Source of the DNA: Akkermansiaceae bacterium
GTDB lineage: Bacteria; Verrucomicrobiota; Verrucomicrobiia; Verrucomicrobiales; Akkermansiaceae
Length of the DNA stretch: 24,000 nt
Assembly: GCA_023301765.1 (NCBI GenBank)
Contig: JALZUC010000051.1
Coordinates: 5,315 to 29,314 of the forward strand
Direction: 5' to 3'
The position numbers and the translations under genes are program-made. Shown here piece by piece: positions 4,631-10,606 of this stretch (its first letter is position 1; each line of letters opens with the position of its first letter). The notes beneath the pieces were generated by a model. The model searched no databases and was not told the DNA's origin. It saw only the letters and a program-made list of their open reading frames with translations.

Positions 4631-5410
4631 CTAGAGATCCTCCTTTCGGACCTCATAACCTGCACCACAGCGGGGGCAATTCACCTTAATCACCTCATCC
4701 CCCTGAAAGAGCTCATCTTTACGGTCTTTCCAAGAACTCAGTGTAGGTAATATCCTATCAAGACTACAGCCACAGTTAAAACGGAACTTACGCGTCTCTA
4801 ACACCTTAGTCTGCTCCACCTCAGTGATAGTAGCCACCTTCTCCGCATCCAGCTCATCGAACCACTCCTCGTCATAGCCTGGCTGGGCCGCGATAAGTGC
4901 ATAGTTTTCATCATCCAGACGGAAACACTTCGCTGGGCGCTGCTCACTCTGTTTATAATAATGCTCTATCCACTCAATAGCATCATTACACTCCAGCTCC
5001 ACAGTAGTCATCCGTGGTTTTTCACCTGAGATACTCGTCTGGCTATAAAGCAGATTACGGTCCGGCTCCCTCACATCCTTAGTGAAGAGCCTCCCTGTGA
5101 TATTCTCAAAAGTGCTACTCCCTGTAGCAAAGTAGTTTACCCTCGGGGCTCTTAAGTTGACCGTCCAAGCAATCGTCTCCGCCCACGGCCGTGCTGTAAG
5201 ATGCAGAGTAAGAACTGCCAGCAAATCCTTCATCGTAGCATCTAGCTCATTTTCATAGCGCTGCTTAGTCTCTAATAAGTGAATATAATAATCCGTATAA
5301 ATAGGAGTAAACTGCGCACGGACGAGGAGGCAATTCCGGTGACGTACAAATATAGACTCCACCTTAGTGAACTCCTCAACGGGCTGCATGGACTGTTCAG
5401 ACATCTGCAA
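4631..5410 (-). CDS. hslO: Hsp33-family redox-regulated chaperone
   Basis: 259-aa ORF. The C-terminus carries the Hsp33 zinc centre C-x-C...C-x-x-C (FRFNCGCSLDRIL....VIKVNCPRCGAGYEV). The YYKQSEQRPAKCF block matches the Hsp33 YF.RSEQLP..LF block. The N-terminal domain is divergent, and the start codon (5410, or one of the next two Met) is uncertain. Confidence 0.78.
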   Translation of the reverse strand: MQMSEQSMQPVEEFTKVESIFVRHRNCLLVRAQFTPIYTDYYIHLLETKQRYENELDATMKDLLAVLTLHLTARPWAETIAWTVNLRAPRVNYFATGSSTFENITGRLFTKDVREPDRNLLYSQTSISGEKPRMTTVELECNDAIEWIEHYYKQSEQRPAKCFRLDDENYALIAAQPGYDEEWFDELDAEKVATITEVEQTKVLETRKFRFNCGCSLDRILPTLSSWKDRKDELFQGDEVIKVNCPRCGAGYEVRKEDL

Positions 5411-5556: not shown

Positions 5557-5961
5557 TCAGCTAATGCTAATAGCCTTAGGCTCCTCCTTAGCACGGCGTG
5601 GAATTTCCAGATAAAGTAAGCCATCCTCTAAACGAGCCTGAATATTATCAGTATCCACCTCCTCAGAAAGCCTAACTCGCCGCTCTACATTCTTGAGAAA
5701 TGCCCGAGATTCATCCGCAGTCTCAGCGGTGACTGTCAGGAACTCCCCATCCGCATTAAGCGAGACTTCACCTTTTTTAAAGCCAGGTAGCTCAAGCCGG
5801 AGATTCCAGCCCTTAGCATCTGCATCACTGGCCTCTACACTCTCCGCAGCGGCACACGCATCACGCTCACAGCTAGCTCGGTTAGATTGGCCAAATGCCT
5901 GTGTAACAAAGCGATCGAGTTCAGAGAAAATGCGATTATTAATTGGGTAATGATTGATCAT
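5557..5961 (-). CDS. small heat-shock protein, Hsp20/alpha-crystallin family
   Basis: Alpha-crystallin domain (WNLRLELPGFKKGEVSLNADGEFLTVTAE......RRVRLSEEVDTDNIQARLEDGLLYLEIPR). I prefer the ATG at 5961 (MINHYPINN...) over the ORF-track start at 6021, whose 20-aa extension looks non-coding. Confidence 0.85.
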   Translation of the reverse strand: MINHYPINNRIFSELDRFVTQAFGQSNRASCERDACAAAESVEASDADAKGWNLRLELPGFKKGEVSLNADGEFLTVTAETADESRAFLKNVERRVRLSEEVDTDNIQARLEDGLLYLEIPRRAKEEPKAISIS

Positions 5962-6144
5962 AGTATTTATTAGTTTGATTTCACCATGATCATTGCAGCC
6001 TTCATGCCACACCCGCCACAAAAGACCCTACCAACTTACTGTAAGACAGTTATGAAAACACCAAGTCAAACCCGATCACCATTCGAGCAATCCTTCAGAC
6101 AGAATGACACGCCATTTTGTCCCACCTCAGCCAATATTACCCAC

Positions 6145-6203: not shown

Positions 6204-6581
6204 CTACGCATTGGCTGGAGCCTTCTTATCGAGGGCTGCCTTCGCCTGATCAACGATGCTATTGAAAGCAGCGATGTCATGCACAACGAGGTCTGCAAGA
6301 ATCTTGCGGTCCACCTCGATGCTTGCGGCCTTAAGGCCTTCAATGAAGCGTGAGTAAGTAAGATCCTGTGCACGGACACCAGCGCTGATACGCTGAATCC
6401 AGAGACGGCGGAACTGTCCTTTACGCTTCTTACGGTCACGATACTCATAAGTCTGCGCTTTACGGACTGCGTCCTTGGCATACTTGTAGAGTTTCGAGCG
6501 GAAGCCACGGAAACCTTTGGCACGTTTAAGAACGCGCTTCCGGCGCTTGCGGCTGGCTGGGCTATTGGTTGCTCTTGGCAT
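6204..6581 (-). CDS. rplT: 50S ribosomal protein L20
   Basis: 125-aa basic ORF: MPRATNSPASRKRRKRVLKRAKGFRG.RSKLY..AK.AV.KA..Y.YRDRK.RKG.FRRLWI.RI.A, which is canonical L20. Confidence 0.95.
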   Translation of the reverse strand: MPRATNSPASRKRRKRVLKRAKGFRGFRSKLYKYAKDAVRKAQTYEYRDRKKRKGQFRRLWIQRISAGVRAQDLTYSRFIEGLKAASIEVDRKILADLVVHDIAAFNSIVDQAKAALDKKAPANA

Positions 6582-6731: not shown

Positions 6732-6941
6732 TTAGGCAAAAGGAAGATTTGCTTTGACATTTTTAATGTCAGCGTCGGATACGAGAGCTGCCTTACCCAG
6801 ATTGCGTTTCCGCTTCTGGTTCTTCTTTGTAAGAATGTGGCGTTTGCCCTGCTTCCGGCGCAGAATCTTCCCTGTGCCCGTCACCTTGAATCTCTTGGCG
6901 ACGGCCTTCCGGGTTTTTGCTGTACCTTTCGATTTGGCCAT
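6732..6941 (-). CDS. rpmI: 50S ribosomal protein L35
   Basis: 69-aa highly basic ORF ([48 protein letters not shown]), which is canonical L35. It sits upstream of rplT as in the conserved rpmI-rplT unit. Confidence 0.93.
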
Positions 6942-7071: not shown

Positions 7072-7575
7072 ATGAAGTTAGTTATATATTCCCTATATGC
7101 TCTCGCTGTAGTTGGTTTACCCATTCTACTAGTATCTTCCAACAGTGAGCCCTCATCTTACCCTGTGGAGGCTGGCCCAGCCAAGTTCCTCCGTGATCAC
7201 GATCAAGCTATGGCTCAGGCAAAAAAAACTGGGAAACCTGTTTTTGCCTTCTTTCAGGAAATCCCCGGATGAGGCGGCTGTAAAGACTTTGGTCGTCAGG
7301 TGATGACCGATCCCACTATCATCTTAGCTGTAGAGAACTCCTTCACACCGCTTCTTATCATCAATAATAAAGCAGGTGCTGATGCCAAGATCCTCAGAAA
7401 ATACAAAGAACCTGCATGGAACTACCAAGTCATCCGCTTTTTAGATAGTAATGGTAAGGACGTCATACCGCGTAAGGGGCAAGTCTATACTAAAAAGGAA
7501 CTCGCTAGCCGTATGGTCAAAGCTTTGGAAAAAGCACAGCGCCCCGTCCCTGAGGCTCTAAAAAAGCTACAGTAA
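7072..7575 (+). CDS. exported thioredoxin-fold oxidoreductase, predicted selenoprotein (UGA 7270-7272 read as Sec; redox motif U-G-G-C)
   Basis: ORFs 7072-7272 and 7300-7575 share one frame and are separated only by TGA 7270-7272. Read-through gives 167 codons: a signal peptide or anchor, then KTGKPVFAFFQEIPG-U-GGCKDFGRQVMTDP...EPAWNYQVIRFLD. The UGA occupies the first Cys position of CxxC, and a hairpin lies 18 nt downstream. Confidence 0.7.
7291..7308 (+). promoter_or_regulatory. candidate bacterial SECIS hairpin
   Basis: GGUCGUC-AGGU-GAUGACC forms a 7-bp stem (one G.U pair) with a 4-nt G-containing apical loop. The loop starts 25 nt after the UGA, within the spacing usually described for bacterial SECIS elements. 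Confidence 0.55.
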
Positions 7576-7634: not shown

Positions 7635-9014
7635 ATGCGAACACTGATTAAGCGAGCTCTAGCGAGCGACACTGCTAAAGACACTATCACCATCAGCGGC
7701 TGGGTGCGGACACGCCGTGACTCTAAAGAGTTTTCTTTTCTGGAAATGAATGACGGCTCATGTCTGGCCAACATTCAGTGTATAGCGGATGCTGGCATCC
7801 CCGGTTACGAAGATGCACCAAAGATGAGCACTGGCGCATCTGTAACCATCGAGGGCAAACTTGTAGAATCCCCTGGCAAAGGCCAAAAATGGGAAATCCA
7901 CGCCACCTCCATCAAACTTATAGGAGAAGCACCTGCGGACTACCCACTGCAGAAAAAAGGCCACACCCCTGAATTCCTCCGCTCCATCGCCCATCTACGC
8001 CCACGAGCTAATCTCTACGGCGCAGTATTCCGCATGAGAAGCCGCATGTCACAAGCAGTGCACCGCTTTTTCTCAGAGCGTGATTTTACCAACGTTCACA
8101 CCCCTATCATCACTGACTCAGACTGCGAGGGCGCTGGTGAAATGTTCCGCGTCAGCACGCTAGATCCGGCTAAGGCAGAGGCGCAGCAGTTCGAGAATGA
8201 TTTCTTTGGTAAACCCACCTACCTAACCGTGAGTGGACAGTTAGAAGGTGAGGCATTTGCCACCGCCCTCTCTAACATCTACACCTTTGGCCCTACATTC
8301 CGTGCAGAAAACTCAAACACCACGCGGCACGCATCTGAATTCTGGATGATCGAGCCAGAGATGGCCTTCTGTGACCTTGAAGGTGATATGGATCTTGCCG
8401 AGGAATTCACCAAATATCTCGTCGATGACGCACTGCAGAACAATGAAGGCGACCTCGATATTTTTGCCCGCTTTGTAGATAAAGGACTACTTGAGCGACT
8501 CAAATTTGTCTCAGAAAAACCCTTCCAGCGCGTCTCCTACACAGAGGCTGTGGAGATCCTTGAGAAGAGTGGCAAGAAGTTCGACTACAAAGTGGAGTGG
8601 GGCGTAAACCTCCAGTCCGAGCACGAGCGCTACCTCACCGAGGAGCACTTTAACAGCCCAGTCACCGTCTACAACTATCCCAAAAGTGTAAAACCCTTCT
8701 ACATGCGCACCAATGAACCTGACAGCGAAGGCCGTGAGACCGTCACCGCCATGGACGTGCTCGTCCCAGGCATCGGCGAAATAATCGGGGGTGCTCAGCG
8801 TGAAGAACGGATCGATGTGCTTATGGCGAACATGGCCGCACACAACCTATCAGAAGACGACTACGGCTGGTATCTAGACCTCCGGAAATACGGCACCTGC
8901 CCGCACGCCGGCTTTGGTATGGGCTTCGAGCGCATGCTCATGTTTGTCACCGGCATGAAAAACATCCGCGACGTCATCCCCTTCGCCAGAACTCCCGGTT
9001 CTTGCGAGTTTTGA
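7635..9014 (+). CDS. asnS: asparagine--tRNA ligase AsnS
   Basis: 459-aa ORF with an N-terminal OB fold and a class IIb core ([55 protein letters not shown]). Confidence 0.95.
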
Positions 9015-9047: not shown

Positions 9048-9419
9048 ATGGAACCACCAGACATTAGAAAATGATCATTCCAGTTCTCTATCAGGGTAAT
9101 AGTCCTATGTAAGGTGCTTGATCAGAGCCCTGGATTATCAAGAACATTGGCCAACCAGTTACTCAGATCAGGAACATTCGTTGGAGCTAATGTCGCTAAA
9201 ACTCAGGCGGCACTGAGCAAAAAAGACTTCATTGCTAAAATGTCAATTGCCAGTAAAGAGTATCACTACACATCTTACTGGCTAGAACTCTTAATCGCCT
9301 CTAATATACTCCCCGAAGCTTAGCTTGCACCTCTCACAGATGAATCAAACGAAATCATCACTATCCTAATATCAATTGTAAAAACATCTCAACTCAACAC
9401 TCAAAACTTCACCCCATGA
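9048..9419 (+). pseudogene. four-helix-bundle protein (23S rRNA intervening-sequence protein family), disrupted by two in-frame stops
   Basis: One frame runs from ATG 9048 to TGA 9417-9419, 124 codons, which is the normal family length. It is interrupted by TGA 9072-9074 and TAG 9321-9323. Family blocks span both stops (SFQFSIRVIVLCKVL, NQLLRSGTFVGANV, LSKKDFIAKMSIASKE, YWLELL, ESNEIITILISIVKT). The terminal TGA overlaps the fabV ATG (ATGA). Confidence 0.65.
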
Positions 9420-10606
9420 TTGTAAAACCTAAAATCCGCGGCTTCATCTGTATCACCTCTCACCCAGACGGCTGTGCCGCTAATGTGCAGGAGCAGATTG
9501 ATTATGTAAAATCTCAACCTAAGGTCGAAGATGGCCCTAAGAACGTGCTCGTGATCGGTTCATCGGCTGGCTATGGCCTCGCCTCACGCATCGTTCCGGC
9601 ATTTTCATCCGGAGCTAATACTCTCGGCCTTTTCTTTGAGAAGCCAGGCACTGAGAAACGCACTGGCTCTGCTGGCTGGTATAATACCGCCGCCTTTGAA
9701 AAAGCGGCTGCTGCTGAAGGTCTATTTGCTAAGTCACTCAATGGTGATGCCTTTTCACACGACCTTAAAAAACAGGCAATCGACATTATCCAAAATGAAA
9801 TGGGGAAAATCGATCTCGTAGTCTACTCCCTCGCCTCCCCTCGCCGTACAGATCCTGATAGCGGTGAAGCATACTCTTCTGTGCTCAAAACCACCGGCGG
9901 AGATTACACAAACAAAACTCTTAATACCGATAAAGGTGAGGTCTCTGAAGTCACCATCGGTGCTGCCACTGACGAGGAAATTGAGAATACTATCAAAGTC
10001 ATGGGCGGTGAAGACTGGGAGCTGTGGATAAACGCTCTAGCAGATGCCGACGTACTTGCTGAAGGTGTAAAAACAGTAGCTTACTCCTACATCGGGCCTG
10101 AGCTTACATGGCCTATTTATACTGATGGCACCATTGGCCAGGCAAAGAAAGATCTAGAGAAATCATGCACTCAGCTTAATGAAAAACTCTCCTCACTAGA
10201 CGGCACCGCATTTGTTTCAGTAAATAAAGCACTCGTTACACAGGCCTCCTCTGCCATCCCAGTAGTGCCACTTTACATCTCCATTCTCTACAAAGAGATG
10301 AAGGCTAAGGGGCTGCATGAAGGCTGTATTGAGCAAATCCAACGCCTCTTCGCAGACCGTCTCTACTCTGATGACCCTCAGTTAGACGAGGCTGGCCGCA
10401 TCCGCATAGACGATTGGGAAATGCGCGATGAGATCCAAGCCGCTGTCGCTGAGTCATGGAAGAAAATCTCTAACGAGAACTTCACAGACCTCGCAGACTT
10501 CCAAGGCTATCAAGATGAATTCCTTCGCCTCTTCGGCTTTGGCATCGATGGCGTAGACTACAGCGCTGAGACTGATCCTGAGACGGCACCAGCCTCACTC
10601 TCCTAG
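9416..10606 (+). CDS. fabV: enoyl-[acyl-carrier-protein] reductase FabV (trans-2-enoyl-CoA reductase family)
   Basis: 396-aa ORF. The N-terminus MIVKPKIRGFICITSHPDGC..NV..QI.YV and the blocks VLVIGSSAGYGLASRI, DLVVYSLASPRR and YSYIGPE.T...Y..GTIG.AK.DLE are characteristic of FabV. Confidence 0.9.
   Translation: MIVKPKIRGFICITSHPDGCAANVQEQIDYVKSQPKVEDGPKNVLVIGSSAGYGLASRIVPAFSSGANTLGLFFEKPGTEKRTGSAGWYNTAAFEKAAAAEGLFAKSLNGDAFSHDLKKQAIDIIQNEMGKIDLVVYSLASPRRTDPDSGEAYSSVLKTTGGDYTNKTLNTDKGEVSEVTIGAATDEEIENTIKVMGGEDWELWINALADADVLAEGVKTVAYSYIGPELTWPIYTDGTIGQAKKDLEKSCTQLNEKLSSLDGTAFVSVNKALVTQASSAIPVVPLYISILYKEMKAKGLHEGCIEQIQRLFADRLYSDDPQLDEAGRIRIDDWEMRDEIQAAVAESWKKISNENFTDLADFQGYQDEFLRLFGFGIDGVDYSAETDPETAPASLS

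Follow-up and report, generated by a model that had tools for sequence, protein, structure and literature searches.

A candidate bacterial SECIS hairpin within a thioredoxin-like selenoprotein gene of the Akkermansiaceae, compared among selenocysteine- and cysteine-encoding homologues

Bacterial SECIS (bSECIS) elements follow a consensus model from Zhang and Gladyshev (bSECISearch), in which an apical loop of 3 to 9 nt sits on an upper stem of 4 to 16 bp, at least one G occupies the first two loop positions and is usually followed by G or U, the UGA-to-loop spacing is 16 to 37 nt, and the minimum free energy (MFE) is -7.5 kcal/mol or lower (summarized in PMC13188914). In the E. coli fdhF SECIS, the most thoroughly studied of the hairpins that bind SelB, the upper stem-loop begins 11 nt after the UGA and contains a bulged U17 that SelB requires (PMC8659212), and G and U nucleotides of the loop are reported as SelB recognition determinants (PMC8659212, PMC13188914). 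Among the known prokaryotic selenoproteins is the family NF041383, listed as "hypothetical protein OS_HP5" (Zhang and Gladyshev 2007; PMC13188914).

Here, we analyze a 24,000-nt stretch of DNA (the window) from an Akkermansiaceae bacterium whose genome of 2.46 Mb is assembled in 68 contigs and whose relatives are named Akkermansiaceae, Oceaniferula, and Rubritalea. An earlier note on this DNA had pointed to a SECIS-like hairpin downstream of an in-frame UGA. We consider it highly probable that this hairpin is a bSECIS directing the incorporation of selenocysteine (Sec) at that UGA. The stem is conserved and covaries in Sec orthologues and is complete in none of the cysteine (Cys) homologues, the genome carries the Sec machinery, and the hairpin has the features of the bSECIS model. 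The locus adds a clean, comparatively validated example from Verrucomicrobiota. The mechanism belongs to textbook biology and the family has been catalogued before, so a specialist will find little surprise in either.

The UGA-containing gene and its hairpin

The selenoprotein gene is divergent from rpmI-rplT and lies 59 nt upstream of asnS (Table 1). Its frame is open but for one TGA, the sole stop within it, and encodes a protein with the motif IPG-U-GG-C and a hydrophobic N terminus (signal peptide or anchor). The protein matches Pfam PF13899 (Thioredoxin_7) at 32.3 bits and NCBIfam NF041383 at 194.6 bits (E = 2.8e-57), the latter over profile positions 1-134 of 287. This score falls below the family cutoff of 275 because the gene is a short form: the C-terminal MsrA-like domain (profile positions about 135-287) carried by its orthologues is missing here. 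Orthologues of about 64 to 68% identity are about 319 to 329 aa long, with the extra MsrA-like domain and a weak PF01625 match, and two of these long forms (L023 and L039) reach 334.9 and 338 bits, above the cutoff. In common with NF041383 (VPGUxxT type 2; OS_HP5 of the Olavius symbiont), the present protein has an N-terminal thioredoxin-like domain with the PGU motif and Sec at the same site. It differs in its length, in lacking the MsrA-like "CFWTGE" domain, and in its motif, which has C in the fourth position (U-x-x-C) where the family name has T (VPG-U-x-x-T).

Table 1. Positions of the selenoprotein gene, the putative SECIS hairpin, and neighboring genes in the window.
Feature	Positions	Strand	Basis
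Thioredoxin-like selenoprotein gene, short form of VPGUxxT type 2 family, 167 residues	7072-7575	+	Single internal TGA, Pfam and NCBIfam matches, co-linear homologues
UGA predicted to be read as Sec (residue 67), first position of redox motif U-G-G-C	7270-7272	+	Aligns with Cys codons in homologues; Sec machinery in genome
UGU, resolving Cys of U-x-x-C motif	7279-7281	+	Invariant C70 in alignment A1
Putative SECIS hairpin, 5' arm	7289-7297; core GGUCGUC 7291-7297, optional extension 7289-7290	+	MFE fold, RNAalifold consensus, pair counts
Apical loop AGGU, presumed SelB contact via its G and U	7298-7301	+	Columns 29-32 invariant in alignment A2
Putative SECIS hairpin, 3' arm	7302-7310; core GAUGACC 7302-7308, optional extension 7309-7310	+	MFE fold, RNAalifold consensus, pair counts
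Hsp33-like fragment	4631-5410	-	
Hsp20-family protein	5557-6021	-	
rplT	6204-6581	-	
rpmI	6732-6941	-	
asnS	7635-9014	+	
fabV	9416-10606	+	

The core stem, which lies 18 nt from the UGA, consists of 7 bp: four G-C or C-G pairs, two A-U pairs, and one G.U pair. It can be extended to 9 bp (7289-7310) through U7290.G7309 and U7289-A7310, and 25 nt (7273-7297) separate the UGA from the loop. The stem arms fall within the codons G-R-Q-V-M-T of the frame. The earlier note had given the coordinates, pair counts, extension, and UGA distances of the hairpin and had placed it inside coding sequence, and all of this holds when checked against the sequence. It had also proposed folding 7270-7330; the MFE structure predicted by RNAfold is the described hairpin, at -12 kcal/mol, both for this segment and for each of the others folded.

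The hairpin agrees with the bSECIS consensus on all four counts, with a 4-nt loop on a 7-bp core (9 bp when extended), the loop sequence A-G-G-U, a UGA-to-loop distance of 25 nt, which lies within the described range (16 to 37 nt; PMC13188914) as had been suggested, and an MFE of -12.0 kcal/mol. Like the elements covered by the model, it is a stem-loop in coding sequence 3' of a Sec-UGA, and its loop has G in the second position, then G and U; there is no structural difference from the model, and the hairpin constitutes a new sequence instance. A search of Rfam gave no match in the window at gathering thresholds, and only chance-level matches (E ≥ 0.5) for 7200-7400 at E ≤ 10. What the hairpin shares with the E. 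coli fdhF SECIS is a small apical loop whose G and U are the presumed SelB determinants, a position inside the open reading frame, and presumably the same tethering of SelB. E. coli-type elements (fdhF/fdnG) have a U bulging from the 5' arm and start at 11 nt; the present stem has no such bulge and begins farther from the UGA, and no sequence similarity extends beyond the loop G and U.

How far the hairpin exceeds chance stability depends on the segment that is folded. Against dinucleotide shuffles, z is -0.35 for the 46 nt of 7270-7315 and -0.71 for the 61 nt of 7270-7330, no better than the shuffled controls against which the earlier note had proposed to judge it. We do not take these values as a refutation because the GC-rich 5' flank inflates the energies of the shuffles and the hairpin-centered segment of 36 nt (7282-7317) gives z = -2.20, with 6 of 200 shuffles as stable; a second implementation of the dinucleotide shuffle gives z = -2.07. 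When synonymous codons are resampled from the codon usage of the source genome with the protein held fixed, 2.1% of the samples retain the complete set of seven pairs, and an energy of -12 kcal/mol is reached by 2.7% (P of about 0.02 to 0.03). Single-sequence stability is modest, window-dependent evidence and speaks only moderately against chance. The evidence that we regard as decisive for a hairpin beyond chance is comparative and is given below.

Selenocysteine machinery and recognition by SelB

The genome encodes SelB (301 bits), SelD (376 bits), and SelA (509 bits), all above curated cutoffs, and a tRNA-Sec (57.6 bits) for which ARAGORN assigns the anticodon tca. A reassignment of TGA (code 4 or 25) was rejected: other genes are without internal TGA, and the dedicated tRNA-Sec is present together with selA, selB, and selD. 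A genome-wide scan that combined TGA codons, a hairpin, and a coding score produced 251 raw candidates and much noise; family searches upheld only selD, miaB, a redoxin gene, and the present gene, and candidates on contigs C21, C28, C55, C61, C2, and C1 were discarded after these searches.

The other three genes that were upheld have hairpins of a similar kind, 24 to 33 nt after the UGA. In selD (G000:C29:15991-16917, + strand; locus L009), an in-frame TGA ("CAG-U-ASK") precedes a 9-bp hairpin whose GUU loop lies 33 nt downstream, and SelD is therefore read as a selenoprotein in this organism. The miaB gene (G000:C38:45392-46765, - strand; locus L262/L265) matches TIGR01574 at 451 bits, above the cutoff, and has an in-frame TGA at codon 11 ("KTYG-U-QMN"), the first Cys position of the N-terminal Fe-S cluster motif, with a GGU-loop hairpin about 26 nt downstream. 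Among 30 genomes of the same genus, 25 have a single TGA in miaB, and all 10 of the loci that were inspected place it at this codon; a 2026 selenoprotein review (PMC13188914) makes no mention of MiaB. The third gene (G000:C60:29897-31168, - strand; locus L263) encodes a Redoxin/ResA-like protein of 424 aa with TPR repeats, in which an in-frame TGA lies in "SW-U-AGC" and the GGC loop of a 7-bp hairpin follows at a distance of 24 nt. With a Pfam Redoxin match and a weak match to NF041054 ("WAxxUGC"), it is probably another selenoprotein.

In the mechanism that we propose for the present gene, the hairpin would form in the mRNA just downstream as the ribosome nears the UGA, and the SelB encoded by the genome, carrying Sec-tRNA(Sec), would bind the AGGU loop through its C-terminal winged-helix domains. 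Tethering of SelB would put the ternary complex at the A site, where the UGA would be decoded as Sec and not as a stop. The predicted product is a thioredoxin-like oxidoreductase, secreted or periplasmic, whose active site reads U-G-G-C.

A hairpin that is functional and linked to Sec could also act by a route other than SelB binding, for example, by slowing the ribosome or by blocking release factor 2 at the UGA. The missing bulged U would fit such a route. The predicted complex of SelB residues 500-639 with the RNA of 7286-7313 scores 0.36 against 0.35 for the best shuffled RNA, a difference that favors neither route. A mere roadblock, however, would need no conserved loop sequence, and the invariant G-G-U of the loop fits the reported SelB determinants (PMC8659212, PMC13188914). 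The G[G/U] signature is shared, moreover, by the loops of the genome's other Sec genes and by the GGUC loops of homologues with a differently placed hairpin (described below). We therefore judge a route that bypasses SelB to be very unlikely and retain SelB binding as the preferred reading.

Conservation and covariation among homologues

Homologous loci were collected from species-representative genomes, metagenome contigs, and a set of 400 genomes from the same family; in that set, exactly one in-frame TGA was present in 44 of the 71 matches. Removal of duplicates left 47 Sec-type (TGA) sequences, including the window's gene, and 141 Cys-type (TGT/TGC) sequences; one regular-expression match with CTG at the site (L204) was false and was left out. 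Sec and Cys homologues align without gaps around the active site and are co-linear on both sides of the TGA. The UGA of the window's gene aligns with TGA in the 46 other distinct Sec homologues and with the first Cys of CxxC in the 141 Cys homologues. One homologue of 48% identity (L025, G043:C60) has Tyr (TAC) at the Sec/Cys site ("VPG-Y-QGC"), and its active site may be inactivated or repurposed.

Eleven Sec sequences share the hairpin described here (class A): the window's gene, its nearest relatives, and Rubritalea tangerina. The earlier note had called for conservation and covariation in Sec-containing orthologues, and both are found. Across the class, 97.4% of the cells of the stem pair, the stem is kept in all 10 close Sec orthologues, and the AGGU loop is identical in 11 of 11 sequences. 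Both partners have changed in three of the seven pairs, namely 24/37 (U-A to C-G via U.G), 27/34, and 28/33 (C-G to G-C). In two others (G.U to A-U and G-C to G.U), variation on a single side leaves the pairing intact. With a value of 0.304, the covariation score is above those of all slid registers and is reached by none of 500 shuffles, a statistic that overstates independence, as the class-A sequences share ancestry. RNAalifold, with no structure supplied, predicts the identical 7-pair helix.

Alternatively, conservation of the protein and codon bias within a close clade might produce the hairpin incidentally, without RNA function, and any recoding of the UGA would then depend on something else. 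The shared ancestry of the class is compatible with this, as are the weak single-sequence z values on 46- and 61-nt segments and the position of the stem in a conserved helix motif of the thioredoxin fold (FGRxVM). The codons themselves argue against it. Synonymous diversity of four- and six-fold degenerate codons in class A is 0.225 inside the hairpin, whereas such codons outside it are well randomized (0.65; Mann-Whitney P = 0.0017). The Arg codon of the hairpin is CGU in 8 of 8 sequences, compared with just 4 of the 96 Arg codons that Cys homologues have there, and other conserved Arg codons of the gene vary freely (0.52 to 0.81). For amino acid replacements on one arm (Q/E, T/A, and R/H), the opposite arm shows matching synonymous changes. 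The joint constraint on RNA and protein that the earlier note had expected of a hairpin inside coding sequence is thus visible both in suppressed synonymous variation and in compensation across the stem.

The Cys homologues provide a second comparison, one that the earlier note had also proposed, and its outcome is as predicted for a SECIS. None of the 141 has the full stem of seven pairs at the class-A position or at that of the alternative hairpin described below (class B), including those with similar residues, compared with 25 of the 47 Sec sequences; at least six pairs are present at one or the other position in 36 of the 47. Over +13 to +48, the folding z averages -1.16 among Sec and +0.03 among Cys sequences, with the Sec sequences being less GC-rich (Mann-Whitney P of about 1e-10, a significance inflated by relatedness). 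The closest Cys homologue, from Oceaniferula spumae, belongs to the same genus-level group and falls, with weak support, in the class-A Sec clade on the tree. It has only 5 of 7 pairs left because the Arg codon CGU has been replaced by Lys AAG, likely a case of stem decay after reversion from Sec to Cys.

Together with the double changes in three pairs, the rarity of the stem among synonymous samples encoding the same protein (about 2%), and a second, differently placed hairpin with covariation of its own in other Sec clades, these observations make a by-product without RNA function highly improbable. On the preferred reading of the hairpin as a bSECIS, the RNA constraint on a coding sequence can be read here directly, from suppressed synonymous change, cross-stem compensation, and stem decay after a likely Sec-to-Cys reversion.

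That the TGA is a true stop, with the locus made up of two short genes, a pseudogene, or the result of an error in sequencing, and with the hairpin irrelevant or a terminator or attenuator, is scarcely credible. Standard open reading frame calling does give 7072-7272 and 7300-7575, but 47 distinct homologues, drawn from numerous genomes and metagenomes, have TGA at exactly this codon, and the protein is conserved in frame on either side of it. The TGA also aligns with the catalytic Cys of 141 others, the full Sec machinery is present, and inspection of the sequence 3' of the hairpin found no U-run. Gene callers appear to split a real selenoprotein gene here, which should be annotated as one Sec-containing thioredoxin-like oxidoreductase.

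Alternative hairpin registers in the family

Most of the other Sec members, which are without the class-A stem, form their hairpin some 6 nt nearer the UGA, at +16 to +22 and +27 to +33, with a GGUC loop (class B, alignment A3). This hairpin of other Akkermansiaceae occurs in the same gene family, follows the same UGA, has a loop containing G-G-U, and is supported by covariation, as in class A; it differs from the class-A hairpin in its spacing, its loop, and the codons from which the stem is built (D-F-G-S-E/K-V). In the 28 class-B sequences, 92% of cells pair, and pair 21/28 is C-G or U-A at a ratio of 14:12. Synonymous diversity is suppressed here as well (0.11 versus 0.61). A third variant has a GGUC(A) loop on Gly-Gln codons. 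The registers can be set out as +22 to +39 with loop AGGU (class A), +16 to +33 with loop GGUC (class B1), and +16 to +31/32 with loop GGUC(A) (class B2).

Class-B Sec genes invariably encode Ser (UCC) after the FG motif, the third variant encodes Gln (CAR) there, and Cys homologues vary freely (R, K, Q, S, or H). On these alignments, the SECIS appears to dictate the amino acid after the FG motif. With slightly less than even confidence, we propose that the SECIS of this one orthologous family may occupy at least two, perhaps three, non-superimposable registers, each with its own covariation and its own imposed amino acid after FG (R/H, S, or Q). Such registers could have arisen by migration of the SECIS along the mRNA with Sec retained, or by several Cys-to-Sec conversions that each invented a hairpin. 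An AU test placing all Sec sequences in one clade gives P = 0.173 on a poorly resolved tree of 130 columns, and a single origin of Sec is neither rejected nor demonstrated by it. If the proposal is true, the registers would form a natural series for the tolerance of SelB spacing and for protein constraint imposed by RNA; they are the only mildly new aspect of the system.

Short (167 aa) and long (about 314 to 329 aa; L023, L024, L039, L076, and L201, with "CFWTGE") forms of the protein are interleaved on the tree, which suggests repeated loss or gain of the C-terminal domain.
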